Below, in pieces: positions 1 to 59,177 of a stretch of DNA of 64,000 bases. This DNA comes from an uncultured Bacteroidales bacterium (lineage in GTDB: Bacteria > Bacteroidota > Bacteroidia > Bacteroidales > UBA7960): contig CAYZCW010000003.1 of assembly GCA_964477035.1 (NCBI GenBank), forward strand, positions 31,540-95,539, read 5' to 3'. The notes beneath the pieces were generated by a model, which was given only the letters and a program-made list of their open reading frames with translations, was not told the DNA's origin and made no database searches. Made by a program: the position numbers and the translations under genes. Each line of letters opens with the position of its first letter. The stretch's first letter is position 1.

Positions 1-559
1 GCACCTCCAGGGCGAAGATCAAACCGGCGATGGGGGCTTTGAAGATGGCGGCAATGGCGGCGGCGGCCCCGCAGCCGATGAGCATGGCGCTGCGCTTGTG
101 CCCGAACCTGACCGCCTGGGCCACGTTGGAGCCGATGGCCGCCCCGGTCGACACGATGGGTGCCTCCATCCCCACCGACCCGCCCAGCCCGCCGGTAAAC
201 GTGCAGGCGATGATGGAAGAATAGGTGTTGTGCAGCTTCATCACCCCCTTGTTGCGTGAAATGGCATACAGAATGCGGGTGACCCCGTGGCTGATGTCGT
301 CCCTGACGAAGGTGCGCACGTAAAAGACGGTGATCAGGATGCCGATCAGGGGGAACACCAGGAAGAAGTAATTTTCCATGTGCCTGGCCGGGATGTTCCG
401 CACCCAGGCCTCCAGGTAGTGCACCGAGGTCTTCAGGATAACCGCCGCGATGGAGGCCAGCAAGCCGATGACCACACACAGGACCAGGGTGAAGTTCCGG
501 TCGCTGATGTGCTTCTGCCGCCATATCAGGAATCTGTCGACCCAGGGTTGCTGTTCCAT
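1..559 (-). CDS. ClC-family chloride channel, N-terminal part (gene runs off the window start)
   Basis: Absent from the ORF track because it is truncated. My minus-strand translation from the ATG at 559 reads MEQQPWVDRFLIWRQKHISDRNF...GGLGGSVGMEAPIVSTGAAIGSNV...LIGCGAAAAIAAIFKAPIAGLIFALEV. It has a GxEAP gating-glutamate-like motif and the ClC APxAGxxFALE motif. Confidence 0.8.
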   Translation of the reverse strand, partial: MEQQPWVDRFLIWRQKHISDRNFTLVLCVVIGLLASIAAVILKTSVHYLEAWVRNIPARHMENYFFLVFPLIGILITVFYVRTFVRDDISHGVTRILYAISRNKGVMKLHNTYSSIIACTFTGGLGGSVGMEAPIVSTGAAIGSNVAQAVRFGHKRSAMLIGCGAAAAIAAIFKAPIAGLIFALEV

Positions 560-686: not shown

Positions 687-1466
687 TCAGTCCCCCCTCC
701 TGCTTTTCTCGGGCAGGTACTTCCAGTAACGGACCGGCATGGCGCGGCGCATCTGCCGGTGGTTGCGGCGCTCCAGGATGTTGACGGCATCGTAGTAGCC
801 CTGCCAGAGCCGGCAATAAAAATCCTCGTCCAGGTCGCGGACCCCGGTGGCCAGGTTGCCGCTGCGCAGGTCGATGCGGTGGTTCTCCAGGACGATCTCC
901 CTGACCGCCAAGGTATCGTAATAGATGCCATACTGTCTGCGGGTGTCGTAGATCACCCACTTCTGTCCCCCGTAACGGTTCCTGAAATGCCGGGCCAGCA
1001 AACGAAGGATGTCGTGGTCGGGCGCCACCGGGGCGAAGTACATGCCGTCGGCCGTCTTCTGAAAGCGCACCAGCCCGTGGAAACGGTGCACTTCAAGCTT
1101 CACCCGCCGGGCCATCTGCACCAGCCGGAACACGGTTTCATCGAGCAGGTTCAGGTGGTACCCGGGGTCCCCTCCACGAAACACCTTTTCCAGGTACTGC
1201 CACAGCAGCATCTCGGTTTGCGGCTCCTGCGCCAGGAAAGCCACGTGCACCAGCCGGGCATTTTTCATGCTTGTTTTCTGTTCCAGCCCCTCCCACACCC
1301 GCCGGGCCTGGGTGTCGTTTCGTCGGATGGGCAAGAGGTCTCCCAGGGGCATCTGCACGCCCGGGCGTTCTGCCAGGATGGCTTCGGGGCGCTGCCGGCC
1401 GGCGAAGGCCCGGAACACCACCGTGAGGAAGCCTTCGAAAGTGCCGTCGTAAGTGTAGGTGGGCAT
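687..1466 (-). CDS. TIGR03915-family probable DNA metabolism protein (DUF4130), partner of the radical-SAM protein upstream
   Basis: 259 aa starting MPTYTYDGTFEGFLTVVFRAF, with FHGLVRFQKTADGMYFAPVAPDHDILRLLARHFRNRY. This is the typical family sequence, and it lies directly downstream of the TIGR03916-type gene. Confidence 0.8.
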   Translation of the reverse strand: MPTYTYDGTFEGFLTVVFRAFAGRQRPEAILAERPGVQMPLGDLLPIRRNDTQARRVWEGLEQKTSMKNARLVHVAFLAQEPQTEMLLWQYLEKVFRGGDPGYHLNLLDETVFRLVQMARRVKLEVHRFHGLVRFQKTADGMYFAPVAPDHDILRLLARHFRNRYGGQKWVIYDTRRQYGIYYDTLAVREIVLENHRIDLRSGNLATGVRDLDEDFYCRLWQGYYDAVNILERRNHRQMRRAMPVRYWKYLPEKSRRGD

Positions 1467-1501
1467 TGGTTGTTGGTTGTTGGTTGTTGGTGGTTGGCCA
1501 A
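1467..1501 (-). repeat. Heptanucleotide tandem array (about 5 units; minus strand reads CCAACAA x3, CCACCAA, TTGGCCA) abutting the start codon at 1466
   Basis: The plus strand reads TGGTTGT TGGTTGT TGGTTGT TGGTGGT TGGCCAA. It occupies almost the whole 38-nt spacer between the stop at 1505 and the ATG at 1466. Confidence 0.85.
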
Positions 1502-8165: not shown

Positions 8166-8237
<72 letters not shown>

Positions 8238-8317
8238 CTCTGTGTTATTCAGGATGCAAAAATAGGGAATAAACCACGACTTACCAAATCTTTGGAAATA
8301 ATTTTGCGGAAAAGGGC

Positions 8318-8355: not shown

Positions 8356-9231
8356 ATGCACAAGGCAGGCTTCGTAAACATCCTCGGCAACCCCAACGCC
8401 GGAAAGTCCACCCTCCTGAATGCCATCCTGGGGGAGAAGCTGGCCATCATCACCCCTAAGGCGCAAACCACCCGCCACCGCATCATGGGCATCGCCAACG
8501 GGGAGGATTACCAGGTGGTTTTTTCGGATACGCCGGGGGTCATCAGCCAGCCCAATTACAAGCTGCAGGAGCAGATGATGCGCTCTGTGCGCAGCACCCT
8601 GGAGGATGCCGACCTGTTCATCCTGCTGACGGAGTTGGACAAGGACTTTGATGAGCCCGGCATGCTGGAGAAAATCGGGGGAATGGGAACCCCCGTCATG
8701 GTGTTGATCAACAAGATCGACCTGGGCACCCAGGACCGTGTCGTGGCCAAATGCGAACAGTGGAAGCAGGCCCATCCCGGATGGATGGTCCTGCCCATCT
8801 CAGCCCTGACCGGATTCAATGTGCCCGAGGTATTTGTCAAGGTCCTCGAACTGATGCCCGAATCCCCGCCCTATTTCCCCAAGGACGAGGTGACCGACCG
8901 CCCCGTTAGGTTTTTTGTGGCCGAGATGGTCCGTGAGAAGATCCTTCTGAACTACCAGAAAGAGATTCCTTATTCGGTGGAGGTGGAAGTGGAGTCCTAC
9001 AAGGAAGGTGCCCAAATGGACCATATCCGGTGTGTAATCCATGTGGCCCGTGAAACCCAGAAAGGTATCCTTATCGGCCATCAGGGGAAGGCGCTGAAAA
9101 AAGTCGGGACCGACGCCCGAAAAGACATCGAAGTCTTCCTGGGCAAGAAGGTCTTTCTGGAGCTCCACGTCAAGGTAACCAAAAACTGGCGGGAAGACGA
9201 AATGAAACTCCGCCGCTTCGGCTACCAATAA
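8356..9231 (+). CDS. era: GTPase Era
   Basis: Starts [26 protein letters not shown] (G1), followed by [17 protein letters not shown] and a C-terminal KH domain. The ORF-track start at 8323 was trimmed. Confidence 0.95.
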
Positions 9232-9301
9232 CCAACCGCCAACAACCAACCGCCAAAAGCCAACCGCCAACAACCAATAGCCAACCGCCAACAGCCAACC
9301 C
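9232..9301 (+). repeat. Heptanucleotide tandem array, 10 units (CCAACCG CCAACAA CCAACCG CCAAAAG CCAACCG CCAACAA CCAATAG CCAACCG CCAACAG CCAACCC)
   Basis: Strict 7-nt periodicity starting directly after the era stop (9229-9231). It ends 10 nt before the der ATG at 9312. Confidence 0.9.
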
Positions 9302-26569: not shown

Positions 26570-29425
<2,856 letters not shown>

Positions 29426-29445
29426 GGATAAAAAAATTGAACCTG

Positions 29446-29453
29446 CAAAGGTA
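29446..29453 (-). promoter_or_regulatory. Candidate -7 box (TACCTTTG) for uvrA
   Basis: Exact TAnnTTTG match on the minus strand, 20 nt upstream of the ATG at 29425 and 18 nt from the heptamer array. Confidence 0.45.
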
Positions 29454-29471
29454 GGGGTTTTTGGGGAGAAG

Positions 29472-29576
29472 TTGGCTATTGGCTATTGGCTATTGGCTGT
29501 TGGCTGTTGGCTATTGGCTGTTGGCTGTTGGGTTTAGGCTTTTGGCTGTTGGGGGTTGGTGGTTTGGCGGGGGTTG
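29472..29576. repeat. Heptanucleotide tandem array, 15 units (TTGGCTA x3, TTGGCTG x2, TTGGCTA, TTGGCTG x2, then 7 degenerate units)
   Basis: Strict 7-nt register read directly from the sequence. It lies between the divergent uvrA and MMPL genes. Confidence 0.9.
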
Positions 29577-29578
29577 AC

Positions 29579-29586
29579 TACCTTTG
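29579..29586 (+). promoter_or_regulatory. Candidate -7 box (TACCTTTG) for the MMPL transporter gene
   Basis: Exact TAnnTTTG match, 21 nt upstream of the ATG at 29608 and 2 nt from the end of the heptamer array. Confidence 0.45.
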
Positions 29587-29607: not shown

Positions 29608-31965
29608 ATGTGGGAAGTCATCGTTCGCATCATCCTTCGCAACCGCCTGACCATTCTGTTGGTCATCGGCGGCCTGACCGGCCTGATGGCCTGGCAGGCA
29701 GGCAGGGTGAAGATGTCGTACGAGCTGGCACAGATGCTTCCTTCCCACGACCAGGCCTTCCGCGACTACGAGCATTTCCGGGAAATCTTCGGGGAGGACG
29801 GCAATGCCGTATTCATCGGGATGGAGGATGAACATGTCCGCTCCCTGCCCGGGTTTCTGCAGTGGCAGTCCTTTACCGACAAGCTGGCCGCCATCCCCGG
29901 GGTCACCGGGGTGGTCAACCTGACCCGCCTTCCGCTGCTGGTACGCAATGACAGCCTCAGGCGGGTTGAGTTCAGGCCCCTGTTCGAAGGGGCACCGGCC
30001 GACCAGCATGCCCTCGACAGCTTGCTGTCCATCGGTTTCGACCAGTCCTTTTTTAAAGACCTGTTGTTCAACCCGCAAACGGGGGCCCTGCTGACCGTGG
30101 TCAGCCTCGACCGCGACATCCTCAACACCCCGGAACGCATCGACCTGGTCAACGCCATCAGGAAGGCCGGCCGCGCCTATTCCCTCGAGAGCGGCATTGA
30201 CCTGCATTACAGCGGACTGCCTTACATCCGGACCCAGACCATGAAGAAGGTGAACACCGAACTGAAGCTGTTCGTCCTGCTGGCCATGGTGGTGGCCTCC
30301 CTGGCCCTGTTCCTGCTGTTCCGGTCCTTCAAGGCGGTGCTGTTTCCCATGATCATCGTGGTCATCAGCGTGGTATGGGCCCTGGGGACCATCGGCCTGC
30401 TCGGGTATGAGATCACGATACTCAAGGGCATCATCCCCCCGCTGATCATCATCATCGGGGTGGAGAACTGCATCTTCCTGCTGAACAAATACCACCACGA
30501 ATACCGGGCCCACGGCAACAAGATCAAAAGCCTGGTGAGGGTGGTACAGCGGGTGGGCAATGCCACCCTGCTGACCAATGCCACGACGGCCGTCGGTTTT
30601 GCCACATTCATCATCACCGGCAACCGCATCCTGGTCGAATTCGGCATCGTGGCCGCCCTGAACATCCTATCGGTCTTCCTGCTCACCATCACCCTCATCC
30701 CCATCTTCTACAGCTACCTGGAGCCACCCAAATACCGGCACATCAGGCACCTGAACAACCGCCGGATGCAGCGAATGATCCGCGGGATCATCCGGGTGGT
30801 CAGCCACCACCGCGCCAGGGTCTATGCCGTGGCCGTGATTCTCCTTTTAGGCGGACTGGCCGGCATGACCCGTCTGCATACTTCCGGCAGCGTGGTGGAC
30901 GACATTCCCCACCGCGACCCGCTGTATACCGACCTGTTGTTTTTCGAACGCCACATCTCGGGCATCATGCCCTTCGAGGTCATGATCGAAACCGGCCGTC
31001 CGAACGGCGTGGTCCGCCCGGCCACCCTGGAGGCCATCGAGGCCTTGCAGGCGGAGATGGCCGCCATCCCTGAATTGTCCCGTCCCCTGTCCGTGGCCGA
31101 GGCCATGAAACTGGTCCGGCAGGCCTTTTACCGGGGCGAGCCCGCCATGTATGGCCTGCCCAACCGGCACGACCGCAACTTCATACAGTCGTACATCCCG
31201 GCCGGGTCCATGGGCGACCAGTCCCTGCTGCGGTCCCTGGCGGACAGCAGCCTGCAGACCACCCGCATCAGCGTGCAGATGGCCAATATCGGCACGAGGG
31301 ACATCCGACGCATTCAGGAGGCATTGCAACCCCGCATCGATTCCCTCTTTGACCCCGCCACCCACAAGGTCACCATCACCGGCACCAGCGTGGTCTTCCT
31401 CAAGGGGACCGAGTACCTGGTTAGGAACCTGCTGACCAGCCTGCTGTTCGCCATCGCCATCATATCGGTGCTCATGGCCCTGCTGTTCAGCCGCGCGCGT
31501 ATGGTGATCATCTCCCTGATCCCCAACCTGTTTCCGCAGATCCTGACGGCCGCCATGATGGGCTACCTGGGCATCCCCATCAAGCCGTCCACCATCATCA
31601 TCTTCAGCATTGCCCTGGGCATATCGGTCGACAACTCCATCCATTTCCTTGCCAAGTTCCGCCAGGAGTTGCGTCTGAAAAACTACCACATCAAGCATGC
31701 CGTGATCTCGGCCCTGAATGAGAGCGGGGTGAGCATGATCTATACCTATGGGGTGCTGTTCTTCGGTTTCATCATCTTCACCTTTTCGACCTTCGGCGGC
31801 ACCCAGGCCCTCGGCTACCTGATCGCCTTCACCCTGAGCGTGGCCCTGCTATCCAACCTATTTCTGATGCCATCCATCCTCCTCTCCCTGCACAAGCGGG
31901 TGGAAGGAACCCGCCTGGAGCGTTCCCTGCTGGGCAAGGCTGACCCATCCGACGGCTTGCTTTAA
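29608..31965 (+). CDS. MMPL/RND-superfamily exporter (HpnN-like, 12 TM, two periplasmic loops)
   Basis: 785 aa with two repeated halves. Each half has a TM1-loop-TM2-6 architecture and GIGVDN/GISVDN-type motifs (IIGVENCIFL, ALGISVDNSIHF). Confidence 0.85.
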   Translation: MWEVIVRIILRNRLTILLVIGGLTGLMAWQAGRVKMSYELAQMLPSHDQAFRDYEHFREIFGEDGNAVFIGMEDEHVRSLPGFLQWQSFTDKLAAIPGVTGVVNLTRLPLLVRNDSLRRVEFRPLFEGAPADQHALDSLLSIGFDQSFFKDLLFNPQTGALLTVVSLDRDILNTPERIDLVNAIRKAGRAYSLESGIDLHYSGLPYIRTQTMKKVNTELKLFVLLAMVVASLALFLLFRSFKAVLFPMIIVVISVVWALGTIGLLGYEITILKGIIPPLIIIIGVENCIFLLNKYHHEYRAHGNKIKSLVRVVQRVGNATLLTNATTAVGFATFIITGNRILVEFGIVAALNILSVFLLTITLIPIFYSYLEPPKYRHIRHLNNRRMQRMIRGIIRVVSHHRARVYAVAVILLLGGLAGMTRLHTSGSVVDDIPHRDPLYTDLLFFERHISGIMPFEVMIETGRPNGVVRPATLEAIEALQAEMAAIPELSRPLSVAEAMKLVRQAFYRGEPAMYGLPNRHDRNFIQSYIPAGSMGDQSLLRSLADSSLQTTRISVQMANIGTRDIRRIQEALQPRIDSLFDPATHKVTITGTSVVFLKGTEYLVRNLLTSLLFAIAIISVLMALLFSRARMVIISLIPNLFPQILTAAMMGYLGIPIKPSTIIIFSIALGISVDNSIHFLAKFRQELRLKNYHIKHAVISALNESGVSMIYTYGVLFFGFIIFTFSTFGGTQALGYLIAFTLSVALLSNLFLMPSILLSLHKRVEGTRLERSLLGKADPSDGLL

Positions 31966-41707: not shown

Positions 41708-41785
<78 letters not shown>

Positions 41786-41842
41786 AAATTCAGGGGGCAA
41801 AGTTAAGGATAAATTCTTTTGTCGCAAACCATTTTGACATTT

Positions 41843-46094: not shown

Positions 46095-46102
46095 TACCTT
46101 TG
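46095..46102 (+). promoter_or_regulatory. Candidate -7 box (TACCTTTG) for ssrA
   Basis: Exact TAnnTTTG match, 15 nt upstream of the mature tmRNA 5' end. Confidence 0.4.
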
Positions 46103-46117
46103 TCCCTGCAAACCCAT

Positions 46118-46491
46118 GGGGCTGATATGGATTAGACAGCAGGTCTGGTGGGAGTGTAAGCATGCCGAGCGTCGTGATTCTGGCTCGTAAATCCCAGGCG
46201 CATCGCCTATAAACGGCAACTCTAACTACGCAATGGCCGCTTAATAACAGTTATTAAGCGCCGTTTGTTTCCCGGGAAGCCACGCCTGGCCGCGTCCCCA
46301 AGGAAACATCATCAAAAGCCGGGATACGTCATGCAAGGCCCTGGTGCATGGCCGACAATCAAAAGGGCTCAGGCAAGCGGTGGGGCCGCCTGTTCCCAGC
46401 CGCAAGCCGAATCCAAAACTACAGGATAAGCATGTAGAAAGCATTTCTGTCGCTTGTTTGGACGAGGGTTCAAATCCCTCCAGCTCCACCA
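46118..46491 (+). ncRNA. ssrA: tmRNA (SsrA), tag peptide GNSNYAMAA
   Basis: The 5' end GGGGCTGATATGGATTAGAC and the 3' end GGACGAGGGTTCAAATCCCTCCAGCTCCACCA form the tRNA-Ala-like domain. The tag reading frame is GGC AAC TCT AAC TAC GCA ATG GCC GCT TAA TAA at 46215-46247. Confidence 0.95.
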
Positions 46492-49741: not shown

Positions 49742-49748
49742 GCATTCA

Positions 49749-49774
49749 GGGGGCTTCGCGGCCCCCTTTTTTTT
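49749..49774 (+). terminator. Rho-independent terminator
   Basis: GGGGGC-ttcgcg-GCCCCC is followed by TTTTTTTT. Confidence 0.7.
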
Positions 49775-49796
49775 ACCCTGACGAACCCAAAAATCC

Positions 49797-49859
49797 CCAA
49801 TAGCCAATAGCCAACAACCAACAGCCAAAACCCAATAACCAAAAGCCAACAGCCAATAC
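49797..49859 (+). repeat. Heptanucleotide tandem array, 9 units (CCAATAG x2, CCAACAA, CCAACAG, CCAAAAC, CCAATAA, CCAAAAG, CCAACAG, CCAATAC)
   Basis: Strict 7-nt register. The array ends 9 nt before the pyrB ATG at 49869. Confidence 0.9.
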
Positions 49860-49868
49860 CCATTTCAC

Positions 49869-50777
49869 ATGAAAAACAAAAGCCTCGTTTCCATCAACGA
49901 TTATTCCCGGGAGGAGCAGCTGCGCGTCCTGGAGGTGGCCCGGGAGTTTGAGAAGAACCCCGTGCAGACGATCCTCAGGGACCATGTGGTCGCATCCCTG
50001 TTCTTCGAACCGTCCACCCGAACCCGCCTGAGCTTCGAAAGCGCCGCCAACCGCCTCGGCGCCCGGGTGATTGGCTTTTCCGAAGCCAGCAACACCAGCG
50101 TTAAAAAAGGGGAGTCGCTGCGCGACACCATCCTGACCATCGCCAACTATTCCGACCTGATCGTGATGCGCAACCCCGTGGAGGGAAGCGCCCGCTTCGC
50201 CTCGGAAATCTCCCCCGTCCCGGTGATCAATGCCGGGGACGGCGCCAACCAGCATCCGACCCAGACGCTGCTGGACCTTTACAGCATACAGAAAACCCAG
50301 GGAACGCTCGACAACCTGCACGTGGCCATGGTGGGCGACCTGAAGTACGGCCGCACGGTCCACTCCCTGGTCATCGCCCTGTGCAACTTCAACACCACCT
50401 TCCACCTGGTATCGCCCGTGGAGCTGAAGCTGCCCAGCTCGGTGAAGATGCACATCAAGGAGCGCAAGCTGGCCTACCACCAGTATACCGACATGGCAGA
50501 GGTGATTCCCGATGTGGACGTGCTGTACATGACCCGCATCCAGCGGGAGCGTTTCAGCGACCCCCTGGAATATGAGCGGATCAAAAACTCCTACAACCTG
50601 CACCACGACATGATCCTGAACACCCGGGAGAACTTCCGGGTGCTGCATCCCCTGCCGCGTGTCAACGAGATCCACATCAACGTGGACCCCAGCCCCAAAG
50701 CCTATTATTTTGAACAGGCGCTCAACGGGGTGTATGTCCGGCAGGCTTTGATGTCGCTGATCCTGGGGGTCCGCTGA
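49869..50777 (+). CDS. pyrB: Aspartate carbamoyltransferase catalytic subunit
   Basis: Contains FFEPSTRTRLSFE, HPTQTLLD, GDLKYGRTVHS and HPLPR. Confidence 0.95.
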   Translation: MKNKSLVSINDYSREEQLRVLEVAREFEKNPVQTILRDHVVASLFFEPSTRTRLSFESAANRLGARVIGFSEASNTSVKKGESLRDTILTIANYSDLIVMRNPVEGSARFASEISPVPVINAGDGANQHPTQTLLDLYSIQKTQGTLDNLHVAMVGDLKYGRTVHSLVIALCNFNTTFHLVSPVELKLPSSVKMHIKERKLAYHQYTDMAEVIPDVDVLYMTRIQRERFSDPLEYERIKNSYNLHHDMILNTRENFRVLHPLPRVNEIHINVDPSPKAYYFEQALNGVYVRQALMSLILGVR

Positions 50778-54938: not shown

Positions 54939-54946
54939 TACCTTTG
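54939..54946 (+). promoter_or_regulatory. Candidate promoter (TTTG at 54914-54917, 21-nt spacer, TACCTTTG) for the membrane protein gene
   Basis: Exact -7 box with a -33-like TTTG at canonical spacing, 96 nt upstream of the ATG at 55043. Confidence 0.45.
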
Positions 54947-55042
54947 CCCTGGCCTGGCCGGCCGGTGCAGGGGGAAAGGGAACGCCGCATGACGGCCGCC
55001 CCCGCCCGGGCAGGGCCGGCCGTCAAACTTAATTCCACCGTC

Positions 55043-56185
55043 ATGGACCTCATCTTGCTCGGACTCTTCTACATCCTGATGCCCATCCTGATCCTGCATC
55101 TCTGCCACAAATACCGCTACGTCAACAAACTGGGCGCGGTGATGATCGCCTATGCCGTGGGACTCCTTCTGGGCAATATCGGGGTGCTGCCTGAGGAGGC
55201 CATCCGGGTGCAGGACCTGCTGACCACCCTCACCATCCCCCTGGCCCTGCCCCTGCTGCTGTTCTCCATGAACATCCGCAAATGGTTCAGCATCGTGGGC
55301 AAGACCCTGGTGTCCATGTTCATCGCCTTCTTCGCGGTCATCTCCATGGTGGTTCTGGGCTACTTCCTGTTCCGCGGACACGGCATCGAGGAGCTGTGGA
55401 AGGTCTCAGGCATGCTCATCGGCGTCTACACCGGAGGCACCCCCAACCTGGCGTCCATCAAGCTGGCACTGGACGTGGACGAGACCATCTATGTGGTGAC
55501 CCATACGTACGACCTGCTCATCGGGGTGGTCTACCTCATGTTCATGCTGACCGTCGGACAGCGTTTCTTCCTCCGCTTCCTGCCTGCCTTCCGGTACGCC
55601 GACCCCGAAACAGCCGGGAAGGGCGACTTCGATGGCATGGACCCTTACTGGGGCATCCTCCGCAAGAAGGTGTACCTGCCCCTTCTGAAGGCCCTGGGCC
55701 TGTCGGTGCTGATCTTCGGACTGGCCGGGGGCCTAAGCCTGCTGGTGCCGGACAGCGCCCAGATGGCGGTGGTCATCCTCCTGATCACCACCCTGGGCAT
55801 CCTGAGTTCCCTCATCCCGTCCGTCAACCGCATCGAAAAGACCTTCGAGCTGGGCATGTACTTCATCCTCGTGTTCAGCATCGTGGTGGCCTCCATGGCC
55901 GACATCAGCCGCTTCCTCACGGCCAGCCCCGTCATTCTCTTCTATGTGAGCCTGGCGGTGTTCGGCTCCCTGCTGGTGCAGGTCATCCTCTCGCGCATCT
56001 TCCGGATCGATGCGGATACCCTGATGATCACCTCCACCGCCTTCATCTGTTCCCCCCCGTTCGTGCCGGTGGTGGCCGGGGCCCTGAAGAACCGGGAGAT
56101 CATTGTATCGGGCCTGTCCGTGGGCATTGTCGGATACGCCGTCGGCAATTACCTGGGCATCACCATTGCCTACCTGCTGCGGTAA
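55043..56185 (+). CDS. Polytopic membrane protein, putative transporter (possibly DUF819/YjcL-like)
   Basis: 380 aa with about 10-12 TM helices and two similar halves (GVYTGGTPNLASIKLAL in the first half). The family assignment is from memory only. The ORF-track start at 54944 was trimmed. Confidence 0.6.
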   Translation: MDLILLGLFYILMPILILHLCHKYRYVNKLGAVMIAYAVGLLLGNIGVLPEEAIRVQDLLTTLTIPLALPLLLFSMNIRKWFSIVGKTLVSMFIAFFAVISMVVLGYFLFRGHGIEELWKVSGMLIGVYTGGTPNLASIKLALDVDETIYVVTHTYDLLIGVVYLMFMLTVGQRFFLRFLPAFRYADPETAGKGDFDGMDPYWGILRKKVYLPLLKALGLSVLIFGLAGGLSLLVPDSAQMAVVILLITTLGILSSLIPSVNRIEKTFELGMYFILVFSIVVASMADISRFLTASPVILFYVSLAVFGSLLVQVILSRIFRIDADTLMITSTAFICSPPFVPVVAGALKNREIIVSGLSVGIVGYAVGNYLGITIAYLLR

Positions 56186-56319
56186 GCGGCCAGGCCCCGG
56201 GCGGAAAAAAACGTCCTGCAAGGACGCTGCTTCAGGTCAAATGGCATAAATATTGCTATGATGCGGGTGTTTATTTGTTATGTTATACCTCCGGCCTGCC
56301 GGATAAATTTCACTGCATC

Positions 56320-56652
56320 ATGAAAACAAGAACCCTGCCCGCCCTGGTGATCCTGGGACTGGCCCTGGCGTTTTCCTCCTGCCAGAAAGAGGAGACCCCC
56401 GACCCCATCGAACTCAAGACCCGCGAGCTGGTCGAGATGGTGGATACCTATTGGATCAGCAAGGCCAGCGTCTACCTGCAAGGCACGCGGCTGGAGTACC
56501 GGAAGGATTTTACCATTGCCGGCAACTACCTGGTCATTACCGAAAGCAACCGCCATTACAACCTCGACCGCATGATCCTTTTCGAGAAGATCCCGGACCC
56601 GGCCAACCCGCCCTCTTCCAACACATTCGTCCTGAAGGTTGATCTCTGGTAA
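56320..56652 (+). CDS. Small lipoprotein of unknown function (110 aa)
   Basis: Starts MKTRTLPALVILGLALAFSSC (lipobox). It is visible only as the tail of the artefactual 55282..56652 ORF. A terminator follows. Confidence 0.6.
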   Translation: MKTRTLPALVILGLALAFSSCQKEETPDPIELKTRELVEMVDTYWISKASVYLQGTRLEYRKDFTIAGNYLVITESNRHYNLDRMILFEKIPDPANPPSSNTFVLKVDLW

Positions 56653-56673
56653 GTCATCTCCGGCCTGCCAATC

Positions 56674-56711
56674 CGCCCGGATCCGGCAAGAGCCGGATCC
56701 GGGCGTTTTTT
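56674..56711 (+). terminator. Rho-independent terminator
   Basis: CGCCCGGATCCGGC-aaga-GCCGGATCCGGGCG is followed by TTTTTT. Confidence 0.85.
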
Positions 56712-56758
56712 ATAGCAAGTCTTCGGACAGATGGCCGTCCGGTTGACCGGGTTTTTGT

Positions 56759-56766
56759 TATTTTTG
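56759..56766 (+). promoter_or_regulatory. Candidate -7 box (TATTTTTG) for the polyamine operon
   Basis: Exact TAnnTTTG match, 28 nt upstream of the ATG at 56795. Confidence 0.4.
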
Positions 56767-56794
56767 TTCTGAGAAAAACCAAAAACCCCGTCCT

Positions 56795-57996: not shown

Positions 57997-58024
57997 TGTT
58001 GGATATTGGCCATTGGCTATTGGA
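57997..58024 (+). repeat. Heptanucleotide array, 4 units in the G/T orientation (TGTTGGA TATTGGC CATTGGC TATTGGA)
   Basis: It fills the 31-nt spacer between the stop at 57994 and the ATG at 58026. Confidence 0.75.
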
Positions 58025-58025
58025 T

Positions 58026-59177
58026 ATGAAAATTGACTTTGACGGGCTGCCCTCTCCCTGCTTTGTACTGGACGAGGAGTTGCTGAAGATCAACCTGCAG
58101 ATACTGGACCTGGTGCAGAAAGAAGCCGGGGTGGAGGTCATCTGTGCGCTGAAGGGGTATGCCATGTGGAGCACCTTCCCCCTCATCAGACAGCACCTGA
58201 GCGGGGCCACCGCCAGCTCCCTGCACGAAGCCCGGCTGATTTACGAGGAGATGGGCTGCGAGGCCCATACCTACTGCCCGGTGTTCAACGAGCAGGAGTT
58301 CGACTCCCTCCTGCACTACAGCAGCCACATCACCTTCAACTCCCTGAGCCAGCTGGAGCGGTTCCGGGAGCGGGTCAGGGGGTTTCACAAAGCGGTTTCC
58401 GTCGGATTGCGTATCAACCCCGAATACTCGGAAGTGGAGACCAAGCTGTACAACCCGGCCGTGCCGGGATCCCGCCTGGGCATCACCGTCGACCATTTCG
58501 GTGACAAGCTGCCGGAAGGGGTGGAGGGCCTCCACTTCCACGTCCTCTGCGAGAACGACAGCCATGTGCTGGAACGCACCCTGCAGCGGGTGGAACAGAA
58601 ATTCGGCCACCTCATCCGACAGGCACGCTGGTTCAACATGGGCGGGGGACACCACATCACACGGAAGGACTACGACGTGAAGCACCTGGTCGGGCTGCTG
58701 CGCGATTTCAGGGCCCGCTATCCCAACCTGGAAACCGTGATCCTGGAGCCGGGCGAGGCCGTGGGCTGGCAAACGGGCTACCTGGTATCCACCGTGCAGG
58801 ACATCATCGAGAACCAGGGCATCCGGGTGGCCATGCTGGATGTGAGCTTCTCGGCCCACATGCCCGATTGCCTGGAAATGCCTTACAAGCCCCGGATACT
58901 CGGGGCGGAAGATGCCCGTAAGGACCGGCCGGTATACCGTATGGGCGGGGGCACCTGCCTGGCAGGCGATTACATGGGCATGGGCGATTACAGCTTCGAC
59001 AGGGAGCTTCAGGTGGGCGACCGCATCGTGTTCGACGACATGATCCACTACACCATGGTGAAAACCACGTTCTTCAACGGGGTGACCCACCCTTCGATCG
59101 GCATCTGGAGGGAGACGGGGGAGTTCGAGCTGCTGAGGCAGTTCGGCTATGAAGACTACAAGGGAAAACTATCCTGA
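58026..59177 (+). CDS. nspC: Carboxynorspermidine/carboxyspermidine decarboxylase
   Basis: Starts MKIDFDGLPSPCFVLDEELL and shows a PLP-dependent decarboxylase fold (ALKGYAMW, HFHVLCEN, NMGGGHH, GGTCLAGD). The ORF-track start at 57885 overlaps the upstream gene and was trimmed. Confidence 0.9.
   Translation: MKIDFDGLPSPCFVLDEELLKINLQILDLVQKEAGVEVICALKGYAMWSTFPLIRQHLSGATASSLHEARLIYEEMGCEAHTYCPVFNEQEFDSLLHYSSHITFNSLSQLERFRERVRGFHKAVSVGLRINPEYSEVETKLYNPAVPGSRLGITVDHFGDKLPEGVEGLHFHVLCENDSHVLERTLQRVEQKFGHLIRQARWFNMGGGHHITRKDYDVKHLVGLLRDFRARYPNLETVILEPGEAVGWQTGYLVSTVQDIIENQGIRVAMLDVSFSAHMPDCLEMPYKPRILGAEDARKDRPVYRMGGGTCLAGDYMGMGDYSFDRELQVGDRIVFDDMIHYTMVKTTFFNGVTHPSIGIWRETGEFELLRQFGYEDYKGKLS

Follow-up and report, generated by a model that had tools for sequence, protein, structure and literature searches.

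The window analysed here, 64,000 nucleotides (nt) of contig CAYZCW010000003.1 from an uncultured Bacteroidales bacterium (assembly GCA_964477035.1), carries an array of 15 heptanucleotides of the type TTGGCTR between the divergent genes uvrA and an MMPL/RND-family exporter (hereafter MMPL). The array is a heptanucleotide microsatellite of a kind already known from bacteria; most probably it is a young one, generated by slippage, specific to this lineage and expanded inside a conserved bidirectional promoter. Replication slippage in steps of 7 and 21 nt would generate a genome-wide family of TTGGNNN/CCAANNN repeats, and the expansion of this array would have taken place at the dyad centre of an older, near-palindromic divergent promoter (CTGCAAAGGTA-N22-TACCTTTGCAG), widening the gap between its two -7 boxes from 22 to 125 nt and replacing the DNA upstream of both. 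The array is likely not a dedicated regulatory element, and such consequences as it has would likely be incidental.

When read unit by unit, the 105 bases of the array (29472-29576) fall into 15 units in a single 7-nt register, as a preliminary description of this DNA had reported. The first eight units (29472-29527) are perfect, in the order TTGGCTA x3, TTGGCTG x2, TTGGCTA, TTGGCTG x2, and the later seven decay progressively. Units 3-5 are repeated as units 6-8 (both A-G-G), so that a 21-nt block is present twice; duplication has therefore proceeded in 21-nt as well as 7-nt steps. Tandem Repeats Finder returned both periods (period 7, 11.7 copies, 86% matches; period 21, 90% matches). The perfect half, nearest uvrA, is the young, slippage-prone part of the array, and the decayed half, beside the MMPL promoter, is the older part; a growing and decaying anatomy of this sort, with eight perfect units, seven decayed units and a 21-nt duplication, is typical of a microsatellite. 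The array also has the properties of a long simple sequence repeat (LSSR), namely a head-to-tail unit of 5-11 nt and a length greater than base composition predicts.

On either side of the array lies the octamer TACCTTTG (CAAAGGTA where it is read from the opposite strand, at uvrA). The uvrA box, on the left, is separated by 18 nt from the array and by 20 nt from the uvrA ATG, and the MMPL box, on the right, by 2 nt from the array and by 21 nt from the MMPL ATG; the two divergent, identical boxes and all four distances agree with those first reported. The primary sigma factor of Bacteroidetes has TAnnTTTG as its -7 element and TTTG as its -33 element, the latter in general weakly conserved (PMC6847099). 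In the window, which has a G+C content of 60.1% and is 91.5% coding, 18 of 31 matches to TAnnTTTG lie inside the intergenic 8.5% of the DNA, and 14 stand in the correct orientation 12-42 nt upstream of a gene (11 protein genes, including era, uvrA and MMPL, two tRNAs and the tmRNA). Both octamers at the array belong to this set of intergenically enriched motifs shortly upstream of a gene. From the enrichment of TAnnTTTG and from conservation in five relatives, the initial proposal that they are Bacteroidota -7 boxes very probably holds.

The tmRNA gene (46118-46491) and both tRNA genes have TAnnTTTG 12-19 nt upstream (46095-46491, 41711-41805 and 8166-8264, each with its gene), and their promoters serve as internal standards for the promoter architecture of this uncultured genome. 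One tRNA promoter and the promoter of an NTP-transferase gene have TTTGG at a 19-20 nt spacer, and in the second tRNA promoter a TTTG stands at 19 nt. At the array, the MMPL box has a -33-like TTGG at 19 nt that is derived from the array itself; with a TTGG every 7 nt, the chance level of such a placement is about 1-in-7 to 2-in-7. No -33 TTTG was found about 19-21 nt upstream of the uvrA box, nor for either gene in relatives with 22-nt spacing. Rfam searches of the window returned the tmRNA and the two tRNAs only, with no match at any array.

Five close relatives (L202 to L206; ~81% MMPL identity, 77-84% nucleotide identity) are syntenic with the window and have uvrA and MMPL in divergent orientation. 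Both -7 boxes are kept in all five, inside an inverted repeat CTGCAAAGGTA ... TACCTTTGCAG. The gap from box to box is 22 nt in L202-L205 (for example CGGCTTTTTTAGCTAAAAAAAC, near-palindromic itself), 51 nt in L206 and 125 nt in the window, where the first 18 nt are still recognisably ancestral by comparison with L206 and the remainder is array. A heptamer repeat between the boxes was found in none of L202-L206, and in a scan of metagenome contigs (best match 70%) an array upstream of MMPL was likewise absent from relatives at or below 70% MMPL identity. The contig from which the window derives was not among the matches of that scan. Upstream of MMPL orthologues the box is TACCTTTG at 70% identity, and further out it takes the form of TAnnTT[TC]G variants. 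The absence of the repeat from the five relatives points to a young, lineage-specific insertion at the dyad centre, and on these sequence comparisons the array is a recent insertion and not a conserved control element. The promoter pair of the relatives is in itself a near-perfect palindrome, CTGCAAAGGTA-N22-TACCTTTGCAG, in which the boxes form the arms and the centre, GCTTTTTTAGCTAAAAAAAC, is also palindromic.

With 22 nt between two -7 boxes, the upstream halves of the two RNA polymerase sites must overlap, given the general footprints of the enzyme. On that basis the two polymerase sites would overlap in the relatives with 22-nt spacing and need not do so in the window, and their separation may be a first incidental effect of the expansion. 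A second may be that a decayed unit supplies MMPL with a near-consensus -33 element, TTGG at a 19-nt spacer.

The regular reiteration of the motif invites a different explanation, in which TTGGC sites are bound by a regulator or a nucleoid protein, or in which the DNA of the tract is bent, unwound or hairpin-forming; three units, 21 nt, correspond to two helical turns. We regard this as very unlikely. Neither strand of the array folds stably as single-stranded DNA (-5.4 and -1.5 kcal/mol for the two strands, centroid unpaired), A-tracts are absent from the array and a repeat every 7 nt does not keep step with the helical turn, against the earlier suggestion of intrinsically bent or unwound DNA. 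Nothing beyond its regularity favours the protein-binding platform that had also been suggested: there is no known candidate for such a protein, relatives that have retained both promoters lack the array, its units decay freely, and other members of the family lie inside transcribed operon spacers, as described below. Cruciform or hairpin DNA at the array is ruled out by the single-stranded folding of both strands.

Short-read metagenome assemblies can mis-build repeats, and the array might for that reason be an artefact of assembly. The window derives from a 248-kb contig of JGI metagenome 3300037528. It is 100% identical over 2.7-6.2 kb, array included, to contigs of three further assemblies (JGI 3300033163, ENA ERZ27252280 and Logan SRR10872670) that encode the identical MMPL protein, although the Logan contig breaks off within the array. 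These three assemblies probably represent one clonal population with the window, and possibly the same or sibling reads. The array, at 105 nt, is shorter than typical reads; four assemblies made with different assemblers are identical, if perhaps from shared read sets, and units of the family recur in related species whose genomes were assembled independently. We therefore reject an assembly artefact and attach to it a practically negligible probability. The stop-free repeat and spacer do mislead gene callers: JGI has a 37-amino-acid (aa) 'hypothetical protein' over the array (29424-29537, + strand), and uvrA and MMPL calls of relatives are N-terminally extended into intergenic DNA, to 981 and 834 aa (L202 7040-9985; L204 10001-12505). 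Variants of the array were also sought by way of the spurious 37-aa open reading frame (ORF) across it, which matched its source contig only and was uninformative.

Unit number nevertheless differs between relatives at other loci. In L213 and L214, which have the same Der protein and are 99.3% identical over 5.3 kb, the TAAACCT/TCGACCT array in the era leader has 9 and 12 units, respectively. Unit-number polymorphism of heptamer arrays in this group is thus directly observed, by a difference of three units at another locus, but not at the uvrA/MMPL array, for which the four identical assemblies gave no variant. In L202 and L203 (87% nucleotide identity), the spacer between the NTP-transferase and polyprenyl-synthase genes holds CCAAYAG-type arrays of ~19 and ~14 units; in the window and in L204-L206 the array is missing from this spacer, which has unrelated sequence. 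A relative at 83% identity, L211, has an era-der spacer of 34 nt without an array, and the end of its era gene, ...AACCAATAG, is a plausible founder unit of the era-der array of the window. More distant relatives have other heptamer units (CTCTGAC, GGTTAAT, GGATGCT, GGCAGTA and CAACACT).

Several features of these spacers were noted in passing. In the L202/L203 spacer arrays one repeat unit, CCAATGT, contains the start codon, and the repeat runs on through the first codons, TCC AAC AGC CAA C; in L203 an inverted TTGGAYA block, which could pair with the CCAAYAG array, stands ahead of that array beside the upstream stop codon. The era leaders of L213 and L214 have a second array, CAGACTT/CAGACGC x4, immediately before the TAAACCT/TCGACCT array. 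Directly before the der ATG of L212-L214 is an octamer repeat, TCAACAAT, of about five units with a C/A-rich sense strand.

The array is one of a family. Runs of at least three exact TTGGNNN units occur six times in the window, against 0.03 expected from first-order Markov simulations; with at most one mismatch, TTGGNNNTTGGNNNTTGG has 36 matches against 0.91 expected, none of 100 shuffles reached 36, and all 36 fall in five loci. Taking a family locus as at least three units with at most one mismatch to TTGGNNNTTGGNNNTTGG, we find these five (1466-1500, 9222-9298, 29472-29576, 49794-49856 and 57999-58026) and no sixth at that threshold, one fewer than the preliminary description had counted. 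Its view of the uvrA/MMPL array as the largest member is correct in bases, but the array at 9222-9298 has more consecutive exact TTGG units (11 versus 9+3). All five are intergenic, in 8.5% of the window DNA; several loci with related units, and a non-coding bias since the unit is not a multiple of three, are further LSSR properties.

The genes flanking the four other arrays were assigned with Pfam. Three of these arrays fill operon-internal spacers of 31-80 nt, and the family is therefore not tied to promoters. There is a -7 box for era and one for the dehydrogenase gene but none for the gene downstream of either, so the arrays at 9222-9298 and 57999-58026 are transcribed intercistronic spacers. 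At 1466-1500 the CCAA strand is the mRNA sense strand and the array continues into the ATG. The 9222-9298 array includes the era stop codon and ends 13 nt ahead of the der ATG. The 49794-49856 array lies 12 nt from the carbamoyltransferase ATG; between the terminator-like hairpin (~49746-49772) and that ATG at 49869, TAnnTTTG is absent (window 49742-49868) and the array is the only sequence there. The genes around the 57999-58026 array look like a carboxynorspermidine pair. The era stop codon of the window stands inside the first units (9222-9231, GGC TAC CAA TAA CCAACCG...), and L211 reads AAC CAA TAG at 200-211.

Table 1. Coordinates of the arrays, promoter boxes and flanking genes. Positions are those of the window unless a related contig is named.
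Feature	Position	Strand	Remarks
uvrA, excinuclease ABC subunit A, 951 aa	26570..29425	-	start CAT 29423-29425
MMPL/RND-family exporter, 785 aa	29608..31965	+	ATG at 29608
uvrA -7 promoter box TACCTTTG (CAAAGGTA on + strand), very probable	29446..29453	-	kept in five relatives within CTGCAAAGGTA
MMPL -7 promoter box TACCTTTG, very probable	29579..29586	+	kept in relatives at ~81% and ~70% identity
Non-repeat remnant of ancestral inter-box spacer, GGGGTTTTTGGGGAGAAG	29454..29471	+	cf. CGGGTTTTTGAAGAGAAA in relative L206
Eight perfect TTGGCTR heptamers, position 7 = A A A G G A G G	29472..29527	+	register reading, Tandem Repeats Finder
Seven decayed heptamers, register kept: TTGGGTT TAGGCTT TTGGCTG TTGGGGG TTGGTGG TTTGGCG GGGGTTG	29528..29576	+	
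Array-derived TTGG, putative near-consensus -33 of MMPL	29556..29559	+	19 nt upstream of MMPL -7 box
TTGGTTG x3, TTGGTGG, TTGGCCA; 38-nt radical SAM-DUF4130 spacer (both genes -)	1466..1500	+	Pfam for genes
11 units, + strand CCAACCG, CCAACAA, CCAATAG and others; 80-nt era-der spacer	9222..9298	-	Pfam for genes
9 units, CCAA sense; between terminator-like hairpin and aspartate/ornithine carbamoyltransferase gene	49794..49856	-	
TTGGATA TTGGCCA TTGGCTA TTGGATA, TTGG sense; 31-nt saccharopine-dehydrogenase-family/PLP-decarboxylase spacer	57999..58026	+	
Palindromic box pair in relatives	L202 9920-9990; L203 2330-2400; L204 10010-10070; L205 9810-9870; L206 9900-9980		
CCAAYAG arrays filling whole NTP-transferase/polyprenyl-synthase spacer, into ATG	L202 13398-13532; L203 5752-5907		
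TAAACCT/TCGACCT array, era leader between -7 box TACCTTTG and ATG	L213 3040-3190; L214 1000-1170		
TCAACAAT repeat, same place as the heptamer array of the window	L212 9960-10000; L213 4150-4190; L214 2130-2170		

Slippage could also make the array a tunable or phase-variable promoter element, changes in unit number altering the spacing or strength of the uvrA promoter, the MMPL promoter or both. Simple sequence repeats of this nature in promoters define contingency loci, for example in Haemophilus and Neisseria (PMC11868660, PMC2651432), and as there a slippage-prone tract lies near the promoters of divergent genes. The array takes up the DNA upstream of two credible -7 boxes, one of its units gives TTGG 19 nt from the MMPL box, and heptamer arrays of related strains vary in unit number. 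The tracts of contingency loci, however, lie between -35 and -10 or in a reading frame, have units of 1-5 nt as a rule and serve surface or host-interaction genes, whereas the present tract lies outside both core promoters, not between -33 and -7, and flanks housekeeping-type genes; neither uvrA nor an RND exporter is a typical contingency gene. Beside the uvrA box stand 18 nt of non-repeat sequence followed by periodic units, so that gain or loss of a unit leaves the adjacent sequence unchanged; only decayed units, which are not slippage-prone, stand beside the MMPL box and reach its -33 position. Since slippage leaves the promoter-adjacent sequence unchanged, classical spacer-length phase variation is inapplicable. 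Moreover, the array is absent from all relatives and identical in four assemblies, and three of the four other family members are not at promoters. The preliminary description thus had the geometry right in placing the array in the upstream space of both promoters, but the array is outside the core promoters and a conserved role is unsupported, given its absence from five relatives; slippage-prone control of promoter spacing or strength fails on geometry and on conservation, and we consider it improbable.

The distribution of such arrays was surveyed with four TTGGYKN units plus TTGG in one genome per GTDB species, which gave at least 120 matches; the statements that follow on scan loci refer to the matches listed. 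About a third of the TTGGYKN arrays are in Cyanobacteria and about a third in Bacteroidota (Maribacter, Aquimarina, Subsaximicrobium, Proteiniphilum, Lentimicrobiaceae, Bacteroidales metagenome-assembled genomes (MAGs) and others), and arrays also occur in Acidobacteriota, Planctomycetota, Verrucomicrobiota and Proteobacteria. Arrays of a single unit are the majority; mixed-unit arrays were seen in the Bacteroidota MAGs L009, L044, L045, L060 and L094, and among cyanobacterial contigs arrays of TTGGTTA, TTGGTTG and TTGGTGA are common. Of 149 scan arrays, at most 15 lie inside long open frames, i.e. at least 90% are intergenic (arrays unmasked), so the expected enrichment in intergenic DNA was borne out in the scan as well as at the five window loci.

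Orientation was scored at the scan loci with a heuristic longest-ORF gene caller that is unreliable in high-G+C contigs, and these statistics are a lead only. Arrays beside a stop codon have TTGG in the sense strand in 39 cases and CCAA in 14 (Bacteroidota 14:0, cyanobacteria 9:1). In the Bacteroidota scan loci alone, the bias on the start side does not reach significance (2:2 at distances up to 20 nt, 5:3 up to 40 nt). At all but one of the five window loci, the CCAA strand is the sense strand of a gene that starts 0-46 nt downstream. There is an apparent rule that the G/T-rich strand reads away from the adjacent gene, before starts and after stops alike (loci L002-L121; also L151 5025-5152, L166 3019-3070, L186 2464-2531 and L200 3751-3836).

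Five points weigh against our interpretation of the array as a slippage product with incidental effects. First, arrays within 20 nt before a start codon are in CCAA sense in 20 cases and in TTGG sense in 5, with 12:0 in cyanobacteria. Second, CCAA-sense leaders are predicted to be nearly unstructured, at -0.007 to -0.075 kcal/mol per nt, compared with -0.226 +/- 0.091 kcal/mol per nt for 48 gene starts of the window; the TTGG strand, as RNA, is predicted to fold well (-0.305 kcal/mol per nt). Third, about 1 in 10 intergenic spacers of the window has an array, more than would be expected of a purely neutral by-product. Fourth, with TTGG at the canonical -33 spacing, the array could now add to MMPL promoter strength. 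Fifth, unit number did not vary at the array itself among four assemblies, which says little about its stability, their flanks being 100% identical too. The CCAA orientation bias and the unstructured leaders hint at selection on at least some arrays.

One form that such selection might take is a module acting at the RNA level, the CCAA strand forming a C/A-rich, G-poor unstructured leader for Shine-Dalgarno-independent initiation or Rho loading; at the uvrA/MMPL array this would apply to a uvrA mRNA from an unrecognised upstream promoter. The predicted contrast between CCAA-sense leaders and the 48 gene starts is in accord with this, as is the orientation bias of the scan loci, and the arrays at der, DUF4130 and carbamoyltransferase and in L202/L203 are all in CCAA sense and stop 0-13 nt short of the ATG. 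In Bacteroidetes, the structure of the leader and upstream adenines tune translation (PMC6847099), and TAACTGA heptamers sit likewise just upstream of start codons (PMC4679880). Against it, the array at 57999 is oriented the other way, the 5' bias does not reach significance among scan loci from Bacteroidota and the gene calls are heuristic. The explanation fits the uvrA/MMPL array less well than the other loci, because there the uvrA -7 box lies between array and gene; no TAnnTTTG faces uvrA beyond the array, which is thus probably untranscribed. For this array we hold an RNA-level role to be doubtful at best; for the family its probability is higher.

Taken more broadly, the heptamer arrays of this clade of Bacteroidota, and perhaps those of cyanobacteria, could be selected, orientation-specific modules and not neutral microsatellites, which we think rather unlikely. 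If so, the arrays before starts would provide C/A-rich unstructured leaders, for Shine-Dalgarno-independent initiation or Rho loading, and those after stops G/T-rich sequence, and the uvrA/MMPL array would serve as an evolvable insulator, uncoupling two promoters that in all relatives overlap.

The interpretation of the array as a young microsatellite places it in a known class. Heptamers are the most over-represented class of long simple sequence repeats in bacteria, and polymerase slippage has been proposed for them (Mrazek 2007, as cited in PMC4679880 and PMC4692102). With the heptanucleotide LSSRs of Mrazek et al. (2007), so far as they are described there, the present family shares head-to-tail 7-nt units, many intergenic loci with related units, turnover of length and sequence between relatives and a proposed origin by slippage; it differs in its unit, TTGGCTR/CCAAYNR, and in its host, an uncultured Bacteroidota of 60% G+C related to Bacteroidales/Lentimicrobium MAGs. 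Named relatives of the MMPL and Der proteins of the window are 'Bacteroidales bacterium' MAGs, with Lentimicrobium at 55% identity. Our literature search found no description of the TTGGCTR/CCAAYNR unit or of this lineage. The belief in the preliminary description that heptamer repeats had not been described in Bacteroidota is contradicted by TAACTGA direct repeats, which were reported from Beggiatoaceae, Cyanobacteria and five Bacteroidetes, including Flexibacter litoralis, Gramella forsetii, Aequorivita sublithincola and Paludibacter (MacGregor 2015, PMC4679880). A post-transcriptional role was suggested for these arrays, and other heptamer repeats were noted in the same spacers (PMC4679880). 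Like the present family, TAACTGA repeats are intergenic heptamers, mostly in one orientation and a few nt from a downstream start codon; unlike them, the array described here has a different unit and lies upstream of both promoters, not in a leader. No TAACTGA unit occurs in any array of the window.

The cyanobacterial STRR repeats, likewise intergenic 7-nt tandem arrays, reportedly have the units CCCCAGT (STRR1), TTGGTCA (STRR2) and CAACAGT (STRR3) and come from filamentous or heterocystous cyanobacteria. The unit CCAACAG, when rotated to CAACAGC, agrees with that STRR3 unit at 6 of 7 positions; the units found here (TTGGCTR, CCAACAG, CCAATAG, CCAACCG and CCAACAA) are nevertheless none of the three, and the host is a member of the Bacteroidota. 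To our knowledge, no function has been established for the STRR, the Nostoc GGGGAYT or the Xanthomonas GGGAATC families. The GGGAATC repeats of Xanthomonas and GGGGAYT repeats of Nostoc have been described together, and extensive variation in length between close relatives is reported for Xanthomonas (PMC4692102). All three differ from the present family in phylum and unit, and the perfect part of the array is not G-quadruplex prone.

Elsewhere in the window, two long overlapping ORFs on the + strand, in different frames (54944-56185 and 55282-56652), lie in the region 54944-56794, where the gene map has a 609-nt gap.

The uvrA/MMPL array is an example of a heptamer microsatellite seen, most probably, soon after its expansion between two conserved back-to-back promoters that form a palindrome in an uncultured Bacteroidota. 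With it, the intergenic heptamer repeats, a known class, gain a new unit (TTGGCTR/CCAAYNR) and a new lineage. The reason for the abundance of heptamer repeats in some bacteria, and the question of an action on RNA, are still treated as open (PMC4692102), and on these the rule of CCAA before starts and TTGG after stops would bear if confirmed with proper gene calls. The locus also constitutes a natural experiment, in which one promoter pair is present at spacings of 22, 51 and 125 nt, and is usable for the study of promoter interference in Bacteroidota.

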